64,000 bases of DNA. Origin: Pyrinomonadaceae bacterium (GTDB taxonomy: Bacteria > Acidobacteriota > Blastocatellia > Pyrinomonadales > Pyrinomonadaceae). Under the pieces are notes generated by a model. The model saw nothing but the letters and a program-made list of their open reading frames with translations. It made no database searches and was not told the DNA's origin. Position 1 is the stretch's first letter; every line of letters begins with the position of its first letter. Location: positions 5,480-69,479 of the forward strand of contig JBPCIP010000069.1 in the NCBI GenBank assembly GCA_051006195.1, given 5' to 3'. The translations under genes were made by a program, and so were the position numbers. Shown piece after piece: positions 7,528 to 64,000 of the stretch.

Positions 7528-8175
7528 ATGCACATAATTCAACCGCCCACGATTAAATTGACTGGAGCGAACAGTTTCAATATGCCGAGCGCCAAGATCA
7601 AGATCGCCAGACAGACGGGTTCCGGCCAACTCCCCGCCGACGCCAGCCGCCTGCTCGAACTCATCATCGCTGAGATCGAGTCGCCCGTAGACACGCAGAA
7701 ACTGCTCGACAAATTCCCCCCGACCGACAGTTGCCACGAAGAGTCGCTCCGCTTCCTGAAGGCCAAAGACCGCGCGCAACGCCGCGCCGACTTCGTCGCG
7801 AACGAGGCTCTGTGGTGGCGCAAGTACGGCTGGTTCATGGCGCGCATCGTCGGGTTGTTCGGGCTGCTCGTCTTCGCCTTCGCCATGTCTGTGCGCGGCG
7901 CGGGCGTGGATTTCATCACCTTCGCCCTGCTCGGCGCTGCCGGGTACTATTTGCTGCTGATGACGGTCTCGAACATTCGCTACCGCGAAAAAAACAAGAA
8001 GCGGCGCAAACTGCTCGAACGCGAGCAGCAACAGTACCAGCGCGCCATCTTAGCGGTGGCCGCTTCACTCCTGAAAAAATTTCAAGTTGACCCGTCGCTC
8101 TACCCCATCGCCAAGCCAAGAAGCGGTGCGGGACTCATCGAGCGCGAAGACGGCTATTTCATTCCGGTTGAATGA
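7528..8175 (+). CDS. Hypothetical membrane protein (two predicted TM helices)
   Basis: ORF 7486..8175. The first codons lie inside the hairpin, so Met at 7528 or 7582 is the more likely start. No recognisable motif. Confidence 0.5.
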   Translation: MHIIQPPTIKLTGANSFNMPSAKIKIARQTGSGQLPADASRLLELIIAEIESPVDTQKLLDKFPPTDSCHEESLRFLKAKDRAQRRADFVANEALWWRKYGWFMARIVGLFGLLVFAFAMSVRGAGVDFITFALLGAAGYYLLLMTVSNIRYREKNKKRRKLLEREQQQYQRAILAVAASLLKKFQVDPSLYPIAKPRSGAGLIEREDGYFIPVE

Positions 8176-16989: not shown

Positions 16990-18018
16990 ATGAAGGCTAT
17001 GCCGAAAAATTTCCTGACAACTGCCGATTGGACACGCGACGAGCTAGAGCGTTTGCTCGAAGCGGCGGCGCGGTTCAAGCGCGGCGAAGATTCATCGAAG
17101 CCACTCGCGGGTAAGTCCGTCGCGCTGGTCTTTTTTAACCCTTCTTTACGCACGCGCGCTTCGATGCAGGTCGGGATTTATGAACTCGGCGGCAATCCGG
17201 TCGTGCTCGAACCGGGTGGGACGAGCTGGACGCTCGAACACCGCGACGGCATCGTGATGGACGGCGACAAGACGGAGCACGTCGCGGAATTTGTGCGCGT
17301 GCTCGGTCGGTATTGCGCGGCGATTGGCGTGCGCACCTTCGCGGCGTTGCAGAATTGGAAAGAGGAGCGGCGCGATCCGGTGCTCGCGGCATTCGCGCGC
17401 CACAGCGAAGTGCCGGTCATCAATCTCGAATCGGCGATGCACCACCCGTGTCAGGCGCTCGCGGACATGTTGACCATCAGGGAGAAACTCGGCGCGGGGC
17501 CGAAGCGCGTCCTCCTCACCTGGGCGTGGCATCCGAAGGCTTTGCCGATGGCCGTGCCGAACAGTTTCGCGCTCGCGGCGGTGCAGTTGGGGCACGAGTT
17601 GACCATCGCGCACCCGCCCGGCTACGAACTCGACGACGAGCTGATCGGGCAACTCAACGAGCGGGCGTTTGACGCGGGCACAAGCGTCAACGTCACAAAC
17701 GACGTGGAAGCGGCCTTCGACGGCGCACAAGTGGTCTACGCGAAGAGTTGGGGCAGCAAGATGTTCTACGGCTCGCCCGAAGATGACATCGAGACGCGCA
17801 CCGAGTATCGCCGCGATTGGATCGTGGACGCGGCGAAGATGCAACGCACCGGCGGCGGCATCTTCATGCACTGTCTCCCCGTGCGCCGCAACGTGATCGT
17901 GACGGACGACGTGATCGATTCCGCCGCGTCGGTGGTGATCGATGAAGCCGAGAACCGTTTGCATGTGCAGAAAGCTGTTTTGGCGAATGCGGATTTCGGA
18001 TTGCGGAATGCGGATTGA
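16990..18018 (+). CDS. argF': N-acyl-L-ornithine (acetyl/succinyl) carbamoyltransferase, ArgF'-type
   Basis: FFNPSLRTRAS, HHPCQALAD, VYAKSWGS (in place of the DxWxSMG of classical OTC) and FMHCLPVRRN match the AOTCase/SOTCase subfamily. Acyl specificity was not determined. Confidence 0.8.
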   Translation: MKAMPKNFLTTADWTRDELERLLEAAARFKRGEDSSKPLAGKSVALVFFNPSLRTRASMQVGIYELGGNPVVLEPGGTSWTLEHRDGIVMDGDKTEHVAEFVRVLGRYCAAIGVRTFAALQNWKEERRDPVLAAFARHSEVPVINLESAMHHPCQALADMLTIREKLGAGPKRVLLTWAWHPKALPMAVPNSFALAAVQLGHELTIAHPPGYELDDELIGQLNERAFDAGTSVNVTNDVEAAFDGAQVVYAKSWGSKMFYGSPEDDIETRTEYRRDWIVDAAKMQRTGGGIFMHCLPVRRNVIVTDDVIDSAASVVIDEAENRLHVQKAVLANADFGLRNAD

Positions 18019-18069
18019 AGAAATTCAATTTGTTTTTAATCCGCATTCTGCAATCCGAAATCCGCAATT
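17986..18069. repeat. 31-bp-stem palindrome built of heptamers (GCGGATT type) at the argF'/argB junction
   Basis: aatgcggatttcggattgcggaatgcggatt (17986-18016) pairs with aatccgcattctgcaatccgaaatccgcaatt (18038-18069), 2-3 mismatches. The left arm encodes the argF' C-terminus (ANADFGLRNAD*). Confidence 0.85.
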
Positions 18070-23704: not shown

Positions 23705-23992
23705 TTACATTGATTTCCAGTCCGCGCCCGCCATTAAACCGGCGACGGATAAATCTTCATCTATCTCAGGCCAGTGTAAGCTCGTGCCGCCGCCGCCGAT
23801 CTCACAGCGCGCCCGTTGCTCCGGTGTCGCTTCCCTTAACAATGGAAACCAGATGAGCGGCACGCTGACGATGCGTCCGTCGGTGAGTAACACGCGCATC
23901 ATCTCGTCGTCAAACTCGACCGTCTTGGCGAGGGCTGAGGTCGGCACATACGCCCGCGCTGAATCACGGTTGTTCTTCGCTAAAGTGCTCAT
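23705..23992 (-). CDS. DUF2442 domain protein
   Basis: MSTLAK...VEFDDEMMRVLLTDGRIVSVPLIWFPLLREATPEQRARCEIGGGGTSLHWPEIDEDLSVAGLMAG matches the DUF2442 pattern. The start is uncertain. Confidence 0.7.
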   Translation of the reverse strand: MSTLAKNNRDSARAYVPTSALAKTVEFDDEMMRVLLTDGRIVSVPLIWFPLLREATPEQRARCEIGGGGTSLHWPEIDEDLSVAGLMAGADWKSM

Positions 23993-24209
23993 TCCAAGCC
24001 TCCAGAAATTGCGCCCGGTGTTGCCCGACGAGATATTCGATTTCATTCAGCTCGCGCCCTCTGAAACCGTAATTGAAAGCTAACCCGATGGGATCGAGCC
24101 AGAACTTAGCTTCGTTCTCCGCCGCTTTGATGTGAATGTGCGGCGGCTCTTGTCCCTCGTTACTGAAAAAGAAGAAGCGAAGGCGGCCTGCTCGCAACAC
24201 CGTCGGCAT
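23964..24209 (-). CDS. DUF4160 domain protein
   Basis: FFFFSNEGQEPPHIHIKAAENEAKFWLDP is the characteristic DUF4160 N-terminus. It is paired with the DUF2442 gene, as is commonly seen. Confidence 0.75.
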   Translation of the reverse strand: MPTVLRAGRLRFFFFSNEGQEPPHIHIKAAENEAKFWLDPIGLAFNYGFRGRELNEIEYLVGQHRAQFLEAWNEHFSEEQP

Positions 24210-28011: not shown

Positions 28012-28965
28012 TTGAAGAAAATCGAACTACCGCCACGAGGAATTGAAACGCTCTTCGGCGTCCACGACCAGAACATCAAACATCTGGAATCATTGCTCGA
28101 CGTGCGCATCGACGCGCGCGGTCAGGATTTGACCATTGACGGCGACCCGAAAGATGTCGCCACGGTCGAGAAGATACTCGAAGACTTCACCGCGCTTTTC
28201 ACCGAAGGTAAAACCTTCACCGACCGCGAACTGCGCGAAGCCTTCGCCCAGATCGCCGAAGACCGCGCTTATTCGCTGCGCGACTATTTCACCAAAGCGC
28301 GCTTCAACCCGGCGGGCAAAAAACAGGTCGCGCCCAAGTCCGCCAACCAACGCCACTACATCGAGGCCATCCAAAATAAAGATGTCGTCTTTGGCGTCGG
28401 CGTGGCTGGGACTGGGAAGACCTATTTGGCTGTGGCGATGGCGATACAGGCGTTGATGCAGAAGCAGGTGAGCCGCATCGTGCTGGCGCGCCCGGCTGTG
28501 GAAGCGGGCGAGAAGTTGGGTTTCCTGCCGGGCGATTTGCAGGACAAGGTTGACCCTTACCTGCGCCCGCTCTACGACGCGCTCTTCGATTTGATCGAAG
28601 CCGAACGCGTCACGAAGCTCCTGGAGAAGCGCGTCATCGAAGTCGCGCCGCTCGCCTTCATGCGGGGTCGCACACTTGCAGATGCTTTCATCATCCTCGA
28701 CGAAGCGCAGAACACGACGAGCGAGCAGATGAAGATGTTTCTCACGCGCATCGGCTTCGGCTCGAAGGCCGTCATCACGGGCGACGTGACGCAGATCGAT
28801 TTGCCGACGGGCAAACGCAGCGGCCTCGTCGAAGCCGAGCGCATCCTTTCCAAAGTCGAAGGCATCGAGTTCGTTTATTTCACGGATAAAGATGTCGTGC
28901 GCCATCGCCTCGTGCAACTGATCATCAGGGCTTACGAAAATCATTCGAGCAAGAGCGGTTTGTGA
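28012..28965 (+). CDS. phoH: PhoH-family ATPase (PhoH/YbeZ)
   Basis: TTG start with AAGGAG 15 nt upstream. Walker [15 protein letters not shown], Walker [10 protein letters not shown]. Confidence 0.92.
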
Positions 28966-28966
28966 T

Positions 28967-31024
28967 ATGCCAATCGAAACGATTTTCCCACTTGCAGGTG
29001 CATGGCTCTGGAGCAATTACGGAAAGAGCCTTGCCGGTAAAGTCTTTGATGCAGGCAAGGAAAAATGGGACGAGTCGAAGTGGGAAACTGCCGCCAGAGC
29101 CTATCGCGCAAAAATCATCAAGCAATACGACTCGATGCAAATTATGGGCATGGTCAAGCCTGTGCCGCTCGATGACATTTTCACCGAGGCTTACATGCTG
29201 GATAAGCCCACCGCCTACGGGCGGTTCGACATCGAAGACTTGAAACAGAAGTCCGCCGCAGACCCGGATGCGCCGCCGCACGCGGAACGAATCAACGGAT
29301 TGAAACTGGTCAGGGATACAGGCAACCTCTTTATCCTGGGGAAGCCGGGCGCGGGTAAAACAACTTTCCTCAAATATATCGCCCTCAAAGCCGCCGAGCA
29401 GTTACTAGATAAAGTCCCGATCTTCATTTCGCTCAAACAATGGGCTGATTCCGGCGTAGAGTTGTTGCCCTTCATCGCAGGGCGTTTCGACATTTTCGAC
29501 TTTCCCGTAGCGCAGCCGTTTGTCGAGGAACTATTGAAATCGGGCGGCGCGATTGTGTTGTTCGACGGCCTTGATGAAGTCAATCAGGAGGACGGGCAAA
29601 GGGACAAGCAAACGCGCGCGATGAACAATTTCATCGAGAAGTATGACCGGACGCAATGCCTCATCACCTGCCGCATCGCCGCCAGCGATTATTCCTTCGA
29701 GCCATTCGCTTACGTCGAGATCGCCGACTTCACCGAAGCGCAGATTCACACGTTTGTCCGCAACTGGTTTCGTAAAGGGGGGAAGAAAGACGAAGAAACC
29801 AGCGCTAAATTTCTGTCTGAGTTTGCGAGGGACGACAACAAAGGCTTGCGCGATCTGGCGCGCACGCCGCTGCTTTTGACGTTGCTGTGTCTGGCCTTCA
29901 ACGAGACGCTGACCATTCCGCCGCGACGGGTTGAAATTTACGAGGAAGCGTTGGACGCACTGTTGAAGAAATGGGACTCGTCACGAAGGATTAAGCGCGA
30001 CGAAGTTTATCGCAAGCTGTCGCTGGGTCATAAAGAGAACATGCTGGCGAGTATCGCGGCGGAGACGTTTGAACGAAACGAATATTTCATCCCGCAGGCG
30101 GAACTGGAAAGACGCATCACGGCTTACGTCAGGAACGTGCCGCCGCACGACGCGAACGAAGCGACCGACGGAGAAGCGATTCTCAAAGCGATTGAGGCGC
30201 AACACGGCATTTTCGTAGAGCGCGCCCGCGCGGTGTATTCCTTTTCGCACCTGACTTTTCAGGAATACTTTACGGCGAAGTATATTGTTGCTAATGCGTC
30301 CAAAGGCACGTTGACGAATCTGGTCAAAGAGCATTGCGCGGACGGGCGTTGGCGTGAAGTGTTCCTGTTGACGACAAGTTTGTTGCCGGATGCCAGCCAT
30401 TTTATGACGGCCTTCCGGCGCAGCGTGGATAATTTTCTCGAAGAGGATGAAAAGCTGCGGGAATTGTTGGCTTGGGCGGATAACAAATCGGCTTCAATTC
30501 AAGCTGATCCCTGGTTAGTGAGACCGTACTATTTGTACATAGAGATTTACTATCGAAGCCGAAACCGCGCCCTCGCCCTCGACCGCGCCCTCGCCCTCGA
30601 CCTCGCCCTCGACCGCGCCCTCGCCCTCGACCTCGCCCTCGACCTCGCCCTCGCCCGCGCCCTCGACCTCGCCCGCGCCCTCGACCTCGCCCGCGACCTC
30701 GCCCTCGCCCGCGCCCGCGACTTGGGATTGAACGAGTTTGCAAAAGAATTAGCCGCGCTCTCGTTACCAACCGACACCTCTCCTACCGCAGAGTGGCAGG
30801 TGTTCGCGGATAAATTGCGAGCCTTGATGATCAAGCACAGGGACATCGGGCATGATTGGAATTTAACCGATCCACAGGAAGCGCGATTGGCTGATTACCT
30901 CAACGCCACGCGCTTGCTGCAAGATTGTTTGGAGTTGGCTGTGATCTCGCCGGATGAAAAGAAGGCGATGCTAAACAGTTTGTATTTGCCACCGGCTCAG
31001 GCAGAGGATGGGCAAAATGCCTGA
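28967..31024 (+). CDS. NACHT-domain STAND NTPase with a C-terminal [A/D][L/R] dipeptide-repeat tract
   Basis: Walker A ILGKPGAGKTTFLKYIAL, Walker B IVLFDGLDEV, and downstream TPLLLTLLCLAF and FSHLTFQEYFTAKYI typical of NACHT modules. A short ~35-aa hydrophobic/amphipathic N-terminus precedes the NTPase. Confidence 0.85.
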   Translation: MPIETIFPLAGAWLWSNYGKSLAGKVFDAGKEKWDESKWETAARAYRAKIIKQYDSMQIMGMVKPVPLDDIFTEAYMLDKPTAYGRFDIEDLKQKSAADPDAPPHAERINGLKLVRDTGNLFILGKPGAGKTTFLKYIALKAAEQLLDKVPIFISLKQWADSGVELLPFIAGRFDIFDFPVAQPFVEELLKSGGAIVLFDGLDEVNQEDGQRDKQTRAMNNFIEKYDRTQCLITCRIAASDYSFEPFAYVEIADFTEAQIHTFVRNWFRKGGKKDEETSAKFLSEFARDDNKGLRDLARTPLLLTLLCLAFNETLTIPPRRVEIYEEALDALLKKWDSSRRIKRDEVYRKLSLGHKENMLASIAAETFERNEYFIPQAELERRITAYVRNVPPHDANEATDGEAILKAIEAQHGIFVERARAVYSFSHLTFQEYFTAKYIVANASKGTLTNLVKEHCADGRWREVFLLTTSLLPDASHFMTAFRRSVDNFLEEDEKLRELLAWADNKSASIQADPWLVRPYYLYIEIYYRSRNRALALDRALALDLALDRALALDLALDLALARALDLARALDLARDLALARARDLGLNEFAKELAALSLPTDTSPTAEWQVFADKLRALMIKHRDIGHDWNLTDPQEARLADYLNATRLLQDCLELAVISPDEKKAMLNSLYLPPAQAEDGQNA
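30565..30726 (+). repeat. Hexanucleotide (G[AC]CC[TG]C) tandem repeat inside the NACHT gene
   Basis: About 27 units encode RALALDRALALDLALDRALALDLALDLALARALDLARALDLARDLALARARDL. All six frames are open here, which produces the artefactual GRGRGR/ARARSR minus-strand ORFs. Confidence 0.9.
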
Positions 31025-31029
31025 GGCGG

Positions 31030-31458
31030 ATGATGATTGAAGTCGTCAACCGTCAGCGCAAGCTGCCGCTTGATTGCGAATGCTGGGAAGCGTTTGCGGC
31101 GAAAGCGTTGAAAGTTGCTCCTGCTCGCGGCGTGGGCGTGACCGTCGCGTTCGTGTCAGACCGCGCGATGCGGGAACTCAATTGGCGTTGGCGCGGCAAG
31201 CGCGGGACGACCGATGTGTTGTCGTTTCCGGCGGAGCAGGCGGAGTTTGAAAAGTTGACGGGGGCGACGCTCGGCGATGTGGTAATTTCGGTCGAGCGGG
31301 CGGAGAAACAGGCAGCAGAGCATAATTTGAGTTTTGAGAGGGAAGTGGAACAATTGATCTTGCACGGCGTGCTCCACCTGTGCGGGCACGATCACGAAAC
31401 TGATGACGGCGAAATGAACGCGCTCGAACTGCGCTTGCGCCGTCGTCTTGGAATATAA
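31030..31458 (+). CDS. ybeY: rRNA maturation endoribonuclease YbeY
   Basis: HGVLHLCGHDHE zinc motif, 142 aa. Confidence 0.95.
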   Translation: MMIEVVNRQRKLPLDCECWEAFAAKALKVAPARGVGVTVAFVSDRAMRELNWRWRGKRGTTDVLSFPAEQAEFEKLTGATLGDVVISVERAEKQAAEHNLSFEREVEQLILHGVLHLCGHDHETDDGEMNALELRLRRRLGI

Positions 31459-31477
31459 TGAAGAGTAATCAATAGTA

Positions 31478-31546
31478 AGTAGTCAGCAGCCAGTAGAAAA
31501 GCGGTGTTTTTCCTGTCTGGCTAGCGGCTACTGGCTACTGACTACT
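31478..31546. repeat. Heptamer-based palindrome (AGTnAGn type) between ybeY and corC-like
   Basis: agtagtcagcagccagtag (31478-31496) pairs with ctactggctactgactact (31528-31546), 1 mismatch, 31-nt loop. Confidence 0.85.
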
Positions 31547-31553
31547 GACCGTT

Positions 31554-32876
31554 ATGGAAATTGAGATAGGGATCACTGGTTTGCTGCTCGTCGCGCTGGC
31601 GTTTCTGGCGTCGATTGATATGGCGTTCGGCGAGTTGAGCGATGTCGGGCTGCGCCGTTTGATCGGGGAGGCGGAGGACGAACGCCCGACCGCCGCGACG
31701 ACTTTTCTCAGCGAGATACTGGAAAGCCGTTCGCGTTTTCGCTTTACGCTCGCCGTCTCCATCCTGCTCTTAGTCGTCACGATCTCCGTCCTCGTCACCT
31801 CCATCATCTCTCAATTGATTTATCGCGCGCCGCAGGCGCAAGCGTTTCCTTATCCCGGCTTTCTCCTGTTGGCCGCCGCCGCCAGCGTCACGCTGACGGG
31901 ACTCGCGCGCCAGATCATTCCGCGCTTCATCGCTTCGAGCAACCCGGAGGCGACGCTGGTTCGCCTGTTGCCCATCCTGCGCCCTTTCTATCGCACGCTC
32001 TCGGTCGTCGCTTTTTCGTGGCACAGGTCGTTTGACCGCCCGCGTCGCAGCGAGCATGTGACCGAGATCGGCGCGGCGGAGGATGAAGACGATAACGGCG
32101 ACGACTTGCAGGCGTTGATCGATGTGGGCGAAGAGGAGGGCATTCTCGAAGAAGAAGAGGGCGAACTGATCCACTCGATCATCGAGTTTGGCGACACGCG
32201 CGTCAGCGAAGTGATGACGCCGCGCACGGAGATTGCCGCCATCCCGATCACTTCGACGGTGCGCGAGGTGCGCGACCGCGTCGTTGAATCGAAATATTCG
32301 CGCCTGCCCGTCTATCGCGATCAAATCGACAACATCGAAGGCATCATCTACGTGCGCGATCTGCTGCAATGCTGGGTGGAGGGGCGCGAGGATGATTCGA
32401 TCCAATCGCTCATTCGGCCTACGCTGTTCGTGCCAGCGACGAAGCCCGTCGCCGAACTGCTTGAAGAGATGCAAAAGAAGCACGCGCAACTCGCAATGGT
32501 GATCGATGAATATGGCGGCGTTGCGGGACTGGCGACGGTCGAAGATATACTGGAAGAGATCGTCGGGGAGATCGAAGACGAAGATACCGGCCTTGAAGAA
32601 GTCGTCGAGATCGTCGAAGCGAGCGACGGTTATTACGATGTGCTCGGTTCAACCGAAGTGGACAAGATCGAACGACTCTTCGAGTTTGAGTTTGAGGAAG
32701 ACGACGACGTGACAACCATCGCCGGTCTCGTCATCGGCGAACTCGGCTATGTGCCGCGTCCCGGAGAGCATCTCAGCTTTCGCGGCCTCGACGTGGAAGT
32801 GCTGGAAGCGGACGAGCGGCGCATCAATCGCCTGCGCCTGCGCCGCGTGGCAGCAAAGGCGGCGGAAGTAGAATAA
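31554..32876 (+). CDS. CNNM/CorC-HlyC family protein (DUF21 TM domain + CBS pair + CorC_HlyC)
   Basis: 440 aa, N-terminal TM domain, CBS-pair region (VSEVMTPRTEI...), C-terminal transporter-associated domain. Classical phoH-ybeY-corC neighbourhood. Confidence 0.85.
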   Translation: MEIEIGITGLLLVALAFLASIDMAFGELSDVGLRRLIGEAEDERPTAATTFLSEILESRSRFRFTLAVSILLLVVTISVLVTSIISQLIYRAPQAQAFPYPGFLLLAAAASVTLTGLARQIIPRFIASSNPEATLVRLLPILRPFYRTLSVVAFSWHRSFDRPRRSEHVTEIGAAEDEDDNGDDLQALIDVGEEEGILEEEEGELIHSIIEFGDTRVSEVMTPRTEIAAIPITSTVREVRDRVVESKYSRLPVYRDQIDNIEGIIYVRDLLQCWVEGREDDSIQSLIRPTLFVPATKPVAELLEEMQKKHAQLAMVIDEYGGVAGLATVEDILEEIVGEIEDEDTGLEEVVEIVEASDGYYDVLGSTEVDKIERLFEFEFEEDDDVTTIAGLVIGELGYVPRPGEHLSFRGLDVEVLEADERRINRLRLRRVAAKAAEVE

Positions 32877-34199: not shown

Positions 34200-34676
34200 A
34201 TGGGGAAGAAGATCACTGATGACCAGCCGCGCGTTTATTTCGATTGCTCGAAATGTCCGGCGTTCTGCTGCGGGCTGTATGAGCGGATTCAAGTGACCAA
34301 ACGCGATCTGAATCGACTGGCGAAACACTTCGGGGTGTCGGTCGAGACGGCGACGAAGCGTTATACGAAGATGTGGGACGGGAAGGAGCGCGTGCTTAAG
34401 CGCACGCCCGACCCCATCCTGGGGACGGCCTGCCAGTTTCTCGATCATGAGACGCGTGGTTGCACGATCTACCACGCCCGCCCACAGGTATGTCGCGAAT
34501 ATCCGGATCGCGTGCGTTGCGTCTACTATGACGTGCTGCAATTCGAGCGGCGACAGCAGGACGATCAGAGCGTGCTGCCTCTTTTTCAAATCACCTTCCG
34601 CGAAGTGGAAGAGAAGGTAGTCACAGACGACGACGGCAGCGAAAAAATCTTGGAATGGAAAACTAAGAAACGGTGA
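34200..34676 (+). CDS. YkgJ-family cysteine-cluster protein (CxxCxxCC, UPF0153)
   Basis: FDCSKCPAFCCGLYERIQV plus later Cys residues (GCTIYHARPQVCREYP). Confidence 0.8.
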   Translation: MGKKITDDQPRVYFDCSKCPAFCCGLYERIQVTKRDLNRLAKHFGVSVETATKRYTKMWDGKERVLKRTPDPILGTACQFLDHETRGCTIYHARPQVCREYPDRVRCVYYDVLQFERRQQDDQSVLPLFQITFREVEEKVVTDDDGSEKILEWKTKKR

Positions 34677-34730
34677 GTGGTAAATGGTGAATGGACAAAG
34701 CCTGTCCTCACCATTTACCACTCACCGTTT
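34668..34730 (+). terminator. Heptamer-based (GGTnAnT) hairpin, 23-bp perfect stem plus inner 5-bp stem, then a T-run
   Basis: aaacggtgagtggtaaatggtga (34668-34690) pairs with tcaccatttaccactcaccgttt (34708-34730). The ykgJ-like stop codon is the TGA of the first heptamer. Confidence 0.85.
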
Positions 34731-34762
34731 TCTATTCACCAGTGTGGAGGCGTGTGAAGAAG

Positions 34763-43426: not shown

Positions 43427-43493
43427 GGGGAGGGGAAAAGGGAAAAGGGAAAGGATGAATCATTCTCCTTTCCCTTTTCCCTTTTCCCCTCCC
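43427..43493. terminator. Near-perfect 66-nt palindrome (GGGAAAA tandem units) downstream of the GGDEF gene
   Basis: ggggaggggaaaagggaaaagggaaagga-tgaatcattc-tcctttcccttttcccttttcccctccc. Confidence 0.85.
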
Positions 43494-48030: not shown

Positions 48031-48095
48031 AAGTGATAAGTGATGAGTAAGGACGAAAGCATTGTCTTTGACGCAGCACTCATCACTCATCACTT
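48031..48095. repeat. Heptamer-based palindrome (GTGATnA type) in a divergent intergenic region
   Basis: aagtgataagtgatgagt (48031-48048) pairs with actcatcactcatcactt (48078-48095), 1 mismatch. It lies between two divergent gene starts, so it terminates neither gene. Confidence 0.85.
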
Positions 48096-60818: not shown

Positions 60819-60897
60819 CAGAGGTTAGAGGTTAGAGGTCAGAGGTTAGAGGAAATCAGTTAGTAACTGACCTCTGACCTCTAACCTCTAACCCCTG
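60819..60897. repeat. Heptamer-based palindrome (AGAGGTT x4), 27-bp stem, at the mrdA/rodA junction
   Basis: cagaggttagaggttagaggtcagagg (60819-60845) pairs with cctctgacctctaacctctaacccctg (60871-60897), 1 mismatch. The right arm and inner stem encode the mrdA C-terminus (...GLEVRGQRSVTN*). Confidence 0.9.
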
Positions 60898-63449: not shown

Positions 63450-63456
63450 AAAAAAA

Positions 63457-63524
63457 GTGACAGGTGACAGATAAGAGGTGACAGGGAGAAGCACAATTTG
63501 ATTTCGTCATCTGTCACCTGTCAC
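63457..63524. repeat. Heptamer-based palindrome (GTGACAG type) at the mreC/mreD junction
   Basis: gtgacaggtgacagat (63457-63472) pairs with atctgtcacctgtcac (63509-63524). On the minus strand the arm encodes the mreC C-terminus (KAVTGDR*). Confidence 0.85.
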
Positions 63525-64000
63525 CGCTTTTTCAGTCTTCGGCAACGCATTAGGGGACGGGGTGCGCGGCGGCGGATGGTAGAGCAGCACCGCGACCTCT
63601 GCCAGCGAGTTCAAGCGCGCACTCGGTTTGACCTTGATTTCATGAGGAGACGTGGCCGACCCTTGTTTGATCTCCACCACTTCGCCGACGCTTAGGCCCG
63701 GAGGATAAATGCCGTCCTGTCCCGTCGTCACGACGATGTCGCTTTGTTTCACCACTTCCAGCCCCGACACATAACGCATGTCGAGCAAGCCGTTTTTGCC
63801 GTAACCTCTGACGGAGCCCATCGCCTGCGACGCGCCGAGTTGACCGACGATAGCGCCGGCAGCCGAGCGTTCGTCTGTAACTAAAAGCACCTGCGCCGTG
63901 ACGGGACTGACGCCGATGACGCGCCCGACGATCCCTTCGTGCGTCACGACCGGCATATCTTTTTCGATGCCGGCAGAACTGCCGCGATTGATCATCACCG
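63507..64000 (-). CDS. mreC: Rod shape-determining protein MreC (C-terminal part; 5' end outside the window)
   Basis: GSSAGIEKDMPVVTHEGIVGRVIGVSPVTAQVLLVTD...VVTTGQDGIYPPGLSVGEV is the MreC beta-barrel region. Confidence 0.9.
   Translation of the reverse strand, partial: VMINRGSSAGIEKDMPVVTHEGIVGRVIGVSPVTAQVLLVTDERSAAGAIVGQLGASQAMGSVRGYGKNGLLDMRYVSGLEVVKQSDIVVTTGQDGIYPPGLSVGEVVEIKQGSATSPHEIKVKPSARLNSLAEVAVLLYHPPPRTPSPNALPKTEKAVTGDR

Follow-up and report, generated by a model that had tools for sequence, protein, structure and literature searches.

We analysed a stretch of 64,000 nucleotides from a Pyrinomonadaceae genome (contig JBPCIP010000069.1; the whole stretch is called the window here), in which an open reading frame (ORF) of 685 amino acids with an ATG start occupies positions 28967..31024 of the plus strand, inside the junction between the two ribosome-maturation genes phoH and ybeY. 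We found that this gene encodes a true NACHT NTPase of the STAND type, which ends in the helical domain NCH2 and is related to the NLR proteins, and that the same gene stands at the same site throughout a clade of Pyrinomonadaceae, which are soil Acidobacteria. Based on these distributions, we favour, with moderate confidence, the reading that an NLR-related NACHT+NCH2 sensor was acquired once in this lineage and uses the housekeeping operon for its expression.

The NACHT Gene Occupies One Site in a Clade of Pyrinomonadaceae

In a search covering 5.8 billion proteins, full-length NACHT+NCH2 clusters at 64-80% identity numbered more than 120, and because of them the gene is certainly real. NCH2 was precomputed in all 120 clusters listed, and the named ones belonged to Pyrinomonadaceae, Blastocatellia or Acidobacteriota. 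Three clusters were located on contigs of 0.8-6.3 Mb with the order folP-lptE-holA-x-rpsT-phoH-NACHT-ybeY-corC-DS, identical to that of the window. One genome per GTDB species was then scanned, which gave 80 loci, and the neighbour proteins of the window were placed on them by tblastn:

NACHT protein at least 63% identical to that of the window, 22 loci: phoH directly upstream in 22 of 22, ybeY and corC next wherever the contig extends
NACHT protein at most 51% identical, 58 loci: phoH, ybeY or corC within 6 kb in 0 of 58

The 22 syntenic loci represented Pyrinomonadaceae species-level genomes, two of them complete chromosomes, with the gene at the same site and in the same orientation, and the arrangement was also found on many metagenome contigs. 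The 58 distant loci came from Chloroflexota, Cyanobacteria, Saprospiraceae and other Bacteroidota and Thiotrichaceae, together with two Pyrinomonadaceae paralogues. An earlier note on this DNA, made from the letters alone, had implied a recent insertion peculiar to this genome; this is contradicted by the orthologues of the gene, which make up a single clade and share one site in at least 22 species-level genomes.

The orthologues formed one clade in 200 of 200 bootstraps, and the NACHT tree was star-like. The nearest outgroups were L029, an Anaerolineae homologue, and L027, a Pyrinomonadaceae paralogue located elsewhere in the genome. Mean pairwise identities over 19 genomes were as follows:

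NACHT core (residues 1-530): 0.76
YbeY: 0.77
CorC: 0.69
DS: 0.84
PhoH: 0.87

The distances between NACHT proteins were correlated with those of the downstream genes (Mantel r=0.31, p=0.012), only modestly because the radiation is star-like. The monophyly of the orthologues and a conservation matching that of their neighbours therefore point to one acquisition followed by inheritance under purifying selection.

The spacing around the gene varied. Of the 22 genome-scan loci, 10 had 1 nucleotide between the phoH stop and the NACHT start, and L013 had an overlap of 1 nucleotide; the distance from the NACHT gene to ybeY ranged from -11 to 688 nucleotides. Where this distance reached 500-690 nucleotides (L001 8135-8458, L015 2958-3312, L019 8143-8561), a 21-nucleotide tandem array filled the spacer, with about 9-12 copies, about 70-75% matches and no convincing ORF; the window does not have this array. 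In addition, phoH contained one intein in 12 of the 22 NACHT-carrying loci (L001/L013, L003/L026, L004, L006, L007, L009, L011, L017, L021, L022 and L024), and L024 probably contained two (Intein_splicing/LAGLIDADG; span 675-1111 amino acids). The copy in the window and the near-full-length copies of the empty-site contigs described below were intein-free.

A Close Lineage Has the Operon Without the Gene

Metagenome contigs were scanned with a gapped degenerate DNA pattern (the C-terminal PhoH motif DVVRH[RK]LV and the YbeY motif DVLSF, 216-276 nucleotides apart). This adjacency scan gave 120 phoH-ybeY loci, all without the NACHT gene, as they were selected by design for adjacency. In nine of these empty-site loci PhoH was 84-90% identical to that of the window, the range among NACHT carriers being 83-96%, and one of them (L148), which is among the empty-site contigs with a PhoH of 87-90% identity, showed the full order folP-lptE-holA-x-phoH-ybeY-corC-DS. 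The ybeY ATG stood within a few nucleotides of the phoH stop in most empty-site contigs, for example 'tag CG ATGATCGAG', and at the extremes the two genes overlapped slightly in L094 and L152 and lay about 24-26 nucleotides apart in L180. No remnants of a NACHT gene were visible at the empty sites. The statement in the earlier note that phoH and ybeY are normally contiguous was thus borne out in the nearest lineage without the NACHT gene.

Over YbeY, CorC and DS the empty-site lineage of L148 and L160 had an identity of 0.70 to the main carrier group, and the value for the most divergent carrier (L014) was 0.69. When the flanking genes were placed in neighbour-joining trees, 200 of 200 replicates separated the carriers and the empty-site lineage, as one group, from more distant Acidobacteria. 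The carriers were monophyletic in only 8 of 200, and L014 joined the empty lineage in 112 of 200; the three lineages were about equidistant. The operon also occurs without the NACHT gene. To judge from these loci, the insertion is precise and old, and the gene is dispensable because a close lineage runs the same operon without it, having either never gained it or cleanly lost it.

These distributions also bear on two further statements of the earlier note. It had called the placement of a defence-type switch inside a housekeeping operon unusual; the context is indeed lineage-specific, but the gene is fixed, old and inherited. And it had named, as the finding that would speak against this, a conserved and ancient operon member with a housekeeping phenotype. 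The gene agrees with this in part, being conserved like YbeY, but a close lineage lacks it.

Layout of the Operon and the Window

The features of the locus are listed below.

28012..28965, plus strand: phoH, the upstream operon gene, a PhoH/YbeZ-type ATPase of 317 amino acids (Pfam PhoH, 327 bits), without intein here
28963..28969, plus strand: junction of the phoH stop and the NACHT start, TGA-t-ATG with a 1-nucleotide gap, which reads ttgTGAtATGcca
28967..31024, plus strand: NACHT-NCH2 STAND NTPase gene, 685 amino acids (Pfam, homologue clusters, Foldseek)
31030..31458, plus strand: ybeY, rRNA maturation endoribonuclease, 142 amino acids (Pfam YbeY, 110 bits; TIGR00043, 116.6 bits)
31554..32876, plus strand: corC/CNNM-type gene, 440 amino acids (Pfam CNNM, CBS and CorC_HlyC)

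The TGA of the NACHT gene ends at 31024 and the ATG of ybeY begins at 31030, leaving a 5-nucleotide gap, TGA-ggcgg-ATG, of sequence gccTGAggcggATGATG. Junction sequences and Pfam thus agree with the position between phoH and ybeY, with gaps of 1 and 5 nucleotides, that had been read from the window before. The TGA-t-ATG junction suggests translational coupling from phoH to the NACHT gene. Moreover, the gene is very probably co-expressed with phoH and ybeY, because the gaps in the window are 1 and 5 nucleotides, the 1-nucleotide gap is recurrent, and a consensus scan of 27.3-34.3 kb gave no excess of promoter- or terminator-like sites over shuffled sequence. We take the phoH-ybeY junction to tolerate an extra, co-transcribed gene in other bacteria also, since in Bacillus a 7TM-HD gene (yqfF/pgpH) of an unrelated protein family presumably lies there.

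The neighbours of the NACHT gene were folP, lptE, holA, rpsT, phoH, ybeY, corC and DS, which do not make up a defence island, and no mobile-element genes flanked it in the ORF list. A tRNA scan and an Rfam scan of the window were both empty.

Several other properties of the window were recorded. The NACHT gene had a G+C content (GC) of 0.549 and a G+C content at third codon positions (GC3) of 0.673 (0.655 for residues 1-530), below 21 other ORFs of the window (GC 0.606 +/- 0.022, GC3 0.751 +/- 0.040); the GC3 of ybeY was similarly low (0.671). Two small overlapping ORFs (113 and 81 amino acids) at 23705-24209 on the minus strand lie directly upstream of folP; they appear by eye to be of the DUF2442/DUF4160 type, a possible toxin-antitoxin-like module. 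Many intergenic spacers contained a long hairpin with arms of 18-32 nucleotides, 87-100% complementary and 10-36 nucleotides apart (31475-31549, 43428-43493, 17988-18066, 60819-60897, 63450-63531, 48031-48095 and also 34672-34741). Each arm was a tandem array of a 7-nucleotide unit, and the heptamer was site-specific (for example GGGAAAA/TTTCCCT, AGAGGTT/AACCTCT, TGCGGAT/ATCCGCA). Such heptamer-built hairpins were also present in intergenic regions of relatives, and they are possibly terminator-like or like repetitive extragenic palindromes, though oddly constructed.

The Protein Is a NACHT STAND NTPase

The assignment to the NACHT family was supported by domain models, motifs and predicted structure. 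Pfam NACHT matched residues 122-270 with 58 bits (gathering threshold 26.7, E=1.3e-15), and Pfam NCH2 (PF22727, NACHT C-terminal helical domain 2) matched residues 610-675 with 49.9 bits (threshold 27). The parts of the NTPase module are as follows:

29057..29296, plus strand: pre-NACHT region, residues 31-110, the conserved N-terminal signature of the NACHT module, with 72% mean identity to the window sequence
29330..29776, plus strand: NACHT P-loop NTPase core (Pfam NACHT; Foldseek NLRC4/NLRP3/NOD2)
29339-29365, plus strand: Walker A, GKPGAGKTT, invariant in 54 homologues
29558-29581, plus strand: Walker B, LFDGLDEV, with the D-G-L-D-E signature, invariant in 54 homologues
30236..30283, plus strand: winged-helix signature YSFSHLTFQEYFTAKY, Y424 to Y434 invariant or nearly so

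We take the winged-helix signature, with its conserved His, to resemble the NLR-type motif FxHxxFQE[FY]. Invariant in the alignment of the 54 homologues were G125-KPGAGK131-TT, L198-F-D200-G-L-D-E204-V, the TCR sensor motif and FSHLTFQEYF, and 85% of the positions in residues 270-470 were conserved. The protein has both elements of the NACHT-clade definition, namely a Walker A of the form GxxxxGK[ST] and a Walker B with D[GAS]hDE (definition quoted in Kibby et al.).

In a Foldseek search with the AlphaFold2 (AF2) model, the best matches in the PDB were NLRC4, NLRP3 and NOD2 (E about 1e-5, probability 1.0), above RFC/ORC. The model as a whole was moderate, with a mean predicted local distance difference test (pLDDT) score of 66, and the TM-scores of the matches were low (0.3); within these limits it showed the NLR-type fold of nucleotide-binding domain, helical domain and winged helix. 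At the sequence level, the closest that the PDB offered were generic P-loop matches and a weak NLRP3 stretch. The protein is therefore a NACHT/STAND NTPase, as the earlier note had proposed, and reassignment to a non-NACHT P-loop family is excluded.

A Short N-terminal Peptide Stands in the Place of an Effector

Before the pre-NACHT region there is a module of about 30 residues (28967-29056), which contains the only candidate output module of the protein:

29000..29023, plus strand: motif A12-W13-L-W15-x-x-Y18-G19 (WxWxxYG)

A12, W13, W15 and G19 were invariant among the 54 homologues. The strict form W-x-W-x-x-[YFW]-[GS] occurred in the first 120 residues of 56 of the 150 nearest family representatives, at least a third of them, and degenerate forms occurred in more. 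As the motif is also present in Chloroflexota homologues away from phoH, it predates the insertion between phoH and ybeY. The peptide occupies the site where relatives carry effectors or adaptors, and no effector or adaptor domain N-terminal of residue 92 was matched in Pfam, PADLOC or NCBIfam. Its hydrophobic part covers 11-18 residues, below the length of a standard transmembrane helix, and its pLDDT in the AF2 model was below 55. The short N-terminus lacking a recognisable effector domain, which the earlier note had pointed out, was thus confirmed as a peptide of about 30 residues without library match.

When the window and 85 loci were searched in six frames for W.W..[YFW]G, no copy was detected in neighbouring genes; apart from two unrelated internal chance matches, the hits were only at NACHT N-termini. 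An amyloid- or adaptor-type signalling partner nearby was rejected, there being no second copy of the motif. WxWxxYG may be undescribed as a recurrent N-terminal module, although no literature search was aimed at the motif.

A Leu-Alternating Tract Precedes NCH2

The C-terminal part comprises two features:

30572..30760, plus strand: hypervariable Leu-alternating tract, residues 536-598, ALDLALDRALALD... (Tandem Repeats Finder (TRF), entropy, autocorrelation)
30794..30991, plus strand: NCH2, the presumed sensor or regulatory end (Pfam PF22727; three helices at pLDDT about 87-98)

The DNA of the tract was a tandem repeat at 30565-30721, with a period of 18 nucleotides, 8.7 copies and 89% matches (TRF). 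Its product was the most variable region of the protein, with an entropy of 2.28 bits versus 0.4-0.5 in the core and a length of 38-102 residues among the 54 homologues. It combined a strict period-2 hydrophobic pattern (autocorrelation) with an L/A/D/R composition. Several relatives had in-frame DNA repeats of their own in the tract, with periods of 6, 12 and 18 nucleotides. Because a like tract precedes NCH2 in homologues from Chloroflexota, Thiotrichaceae, Bacteroidota and Cyanobacteria, it is a feature of the family, and by its repeats it can be regarded as slippage-prone family-wide. Frameshifts were found directly upstream of the tract in a Pyrinomonadaceae orthologue (L023, ~7570-7650) and within it in a more distant Thiotrichaceae homologue (L030, ~7611-7740); these reflect either inactivation by slippage or assembly errors in GC-rich repeat DNA.

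Residues 599-675 had 70% mean identity to the window sequence. The AF2 model of residues 470-685 was confident (pLDDT 85.8, predicted TM-score 0.79) and showed short antiparallel helices of the tract (pLDDT 68-98) leading into the three-helix NCH2. No significant PDB neighbour of this model was found by Foldseek (best E=0.86). No TPR, WD40, LRR or HEAT sensor repeat was matched by Pfam C-terminal of the NTPase, and the model was all-helical, possibly with short hairpins. So the dipeptide tract reported previously is real and no recognisable TPR, WD40 or LRR sensor is present, but the C-terminus ends in NCH2, a domain that the earlier note had missed.

The Wider Family and Known Systems

Among 1.84 billion cluster representatives searched exhaustively with HMMER, 2,491 were relatives at E<=1e-30. 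Among the 150 best matches (38-74% identity) were proteins with an N-terminal CHAT protease, EAD7, bDLD1 (death-like) or AAA_35 before NACHT-NCH2, and the cyanobacterial homologues carried an HTH-like N-terminal extension. Homologues 33-51% identical to the window protein occurred in Chloroflexota, Cyanobacteria, Saprospiraceae and Thiotrichaceae. The neighbours of the distant homologues included HNH, the HepT toxin, DUF559, AAA_15/21 and other STAND ATPases, or plain metabolic genes; the contexts were heterogeneous, and no partner gene was conserved among these homologues. The wider family is thus patchy and found in variable contexts, unlike the syntenic orthologues. On an Anaerolineae chromosome (L031 4118-11302), a motif-bearing homologue was fused to a second ATPase of the AAA_16/nSTAND type (1285 amino acids) and flanked by an AAA_15/AAA_21 ATPase and a STAND/AAA_35 ATPase, a defence-island-like cluster.

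In the published classification of bacterial NACHT (bNACHT) proteins, clade 6 contains NACHT+NCH2 proteins with TIR, caspase, EACC2, EAD4, EAD8, HTH, HEPN, Schlafen or nothing at the N-terminus (Kibby et al. Table S1, bioRxiv 10.1101/2022.07.19.500537), and it also holds bNACHT25 and bNACHT32, which are experimentally antiphage (Kibby et al., bioRxiv 10.1101/2022.07.19.500537). The window protein shares with the NACHT+NCH2 members (PF05729 and PF22727) the order of pre-NACHT region, NACHT, winged helix, helical region and NCH2. It also has 33-51% near-full-length identity to Chloroflexota and cyanobacterial proteins of this type, and the cyanobacterial HTH-like extension resembles the HTH+NACHT+NCH2 entry. 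We infer its placement in clade 6 from this shared architecture and from the families of its near relatives. Two differences were found: the window protein has only the WxWxxYG peptide of about 30 residues and no N-terminal effector or adaptor domain, which is common though not obligatory in the clade, and its gene is fixed in a housekeeping operon across a clade instead of being patchy. The defence-type kinship claimed from the sequence is upheld, as the wider family is of the conflict or defence type by its N-terminal modules and by Table S1 of Kibby et al.

Two experimentally studied groups are comparable. The E. coli proteins bNACHT25 and bNACHT32 (REase-NACHT-NCH1) are alike in clade, by the table of Kibby et al., and in having a short helical C-terminal domain instead of repeat sensors; they differ in carrying NCH1 and not NCH2, in requiring a PD-(D/E)XK nuclease for defence and in lying outside a housekeeping operon. 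bNACHT25 senses phage via the host DnaJ, a precedent for sensing through a housekeeping factor (PMC12169576). Clade 14 bNACHTs are described by the same group as protecting against phage although no effector domain is discernible in them (PMC12169576). Of these, bNACHT01, bNACHT02 and bNACHT12, with the short C-terminal domain SNaCT, are likewise effector-less, short NACHT proteins reported to be anti-phage; they belong to another clade, and their C-terminal domain is a different one that diversifies fast, whereas NCH2 of the window protein is conserved and only the linker tract varies. Since anti-phage activity is reported for these effector-less proteins, function is compatible with a minimal domain set. 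Nor is that set unusual, as had been supposed: plain NACHT+NCH2 is listed in clade 6 (Kibby et al. Table S1), and clade 14 is effector-less.

The protein type is therefore already catalogued, and effector-less NACHTs are known. The fixed phoH-NACHT-ybeY operon context appears to be unreported; among the papers searched, none contained both 'ybeY' and 'NACHT', and a search on domesticated defence genes gave nothing relevant.

Origin and Possible Working of the Gene

According to the reading that we favour, the ancestor of a Pyrinomonadaceae subclade would have gained the gene once, exactly at the phoH-ybeY junction, its source being a pool of genes often found in filamentous Chloroflexota, Cyanobacteria and Bacteroidota. 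The gene would most probably be co-transcribed with phoH and translationally coupled to it, the operon giving steady expression rather than a shared pathway. That the position serves mainly constitutive expression is suggested by the absence of a link to phoH or ybeY in the rest of the family and by the close lineage that lacks the gene. The working of NACHT/STAND proteins in general provides a model of its action. The helical C-terminus (tract and NCH2) would keep the NTPase ADP-bound and off, until the C-terminal region detects a trigger, either a phage-derived molecule or a disturbed host component. Binding of the trigger would lead to nucleotide exchange and oligomerisation, and the oligomers would cluster the WxWxxYG peptides, at the position of the CHAT, death-like, EAD or HTH modules of relatives. 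The clustered peptides would then be the output, either perturbing the membrane or bringing in a partner whose gene lies elsewhere.

Several observations weigh against a defence-type sensor working in this way. The curated defence models of NCBIfam scored far below their cut-offs (EruA 44 bits vs 1000, DS8 31.8 vs 790), and PADLOC yielded no more than a partial match to PDC-S60 (E=1e-11). The genes around the NACHT gene are all of the housekeeping kind, and there is no defence island. NCH2 and the whole core are strongly conserved and not diversifying, and defence genes are not typically kept at one site throughout a clade. Moreover, only about a third of STAND clades (198/589) are classed as defence-associated (PMC13581612), and all relatives found are metagenome-assembled genomes, with no cultured host known. 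As to the mechanism, the output role of the N-terminal peptide is a guess, and the AF2 helix confidence in the Ala/Leu-rich low-complexity tract may be over-prediction.

Other explanations have to be considered beside this one. The most substantial, which we regard as possible yet clearly less probable, is that the NACHT protein now belongs to the PhoH/YbeY pathway, either as a guard that watches over PhoH, YbeY or rRNA maturation and responds when these are upset by phage or stress, or as an NTP-driven regulator, so that the operon reflects shared function and stoichiometry. This is consistent with the TGA-n-ATG coupling to phoH at 10 of 22 genome-scan loci, with a core conserved like YbeY and an NCH2 of 70% mean identity to the window sequence, with the lack of defence neighbours in the window and with the precedent of bNACHT25 and DnaJ in clade 6 (PMC12169576). 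However, the link is unique to one clade, 0 of 58 distant homologues having phoH, ybeY or corC within 6 kb, and the whole architecture, including the N-terminal motif, is older than the insertion. The gene is missing from the same operon in an equally close lineage, and in several relatives a repeat-filled spacer of 300-690 nucleotides separates it from ybeY, or about 300 nucleotides separate it from phoH. A bolder form, in which the rRNA-maturation operon has captured an NLR-like switch that now serves PhoH/YbeY as a hard-wired guard or NTP-gated regulator, with WxWxxYG as an undescribed minimal output module acting only on oligomerisation, seems to us improbable.

The gene might instead be a decaying or neutral passenger, kept since its removal would disturb ybeY expression. 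The frameshifts upstream of the tract in L023 and within it in L030, and the existence of one lineage entirely without the gene, would fit this, but errors of assembly in a GC-rich repeat may account for those frameshifts, and 21 of 22 genomes have an intact reading frame. Among the 54 homologues, moreover, no NTPase motif varies and conservation extends to 85% of positions 270-470; we consider a passenger very unlikely. Least credible of all is that this genome alone received the gene, in a recent mobile or defence-island insertion; the synteny survey refuted this. The GC3 of the gene is slightly low (0.67 vs 0.75 +/- 0.04 in the neighbours) and the wider family is patchy across phyla. But the gene occupies the same site and orientation in 22 species-level genomes, including two complete chromosomes, and the divergence of its orthologues, now 63-78% identical, has kept pace with that of the neighbouring genes. 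The ORF list shows no mobile-element genes beside it, and no tRNA was found in the window.

A single, old acquisition of an NLR-related sensor that uses the operon for expression remains the reading we prefer. The practical value of the case is limited, all carriers found being uncultured. The equally close lineage without the gene offers a natural control. In bacteria, defence-type NLR relatives tend to be mobile and patchy and to be lost again soon; this one has been kept at a single site in an operon of essential genes across a whole clade and has evolved as slowly as YbeY. This opens questions about the domestication of such sensors, about operon embedding as a mere means of constitutive expression, and about the output capacity of a peptide of about 30 residues in a STAND switch.

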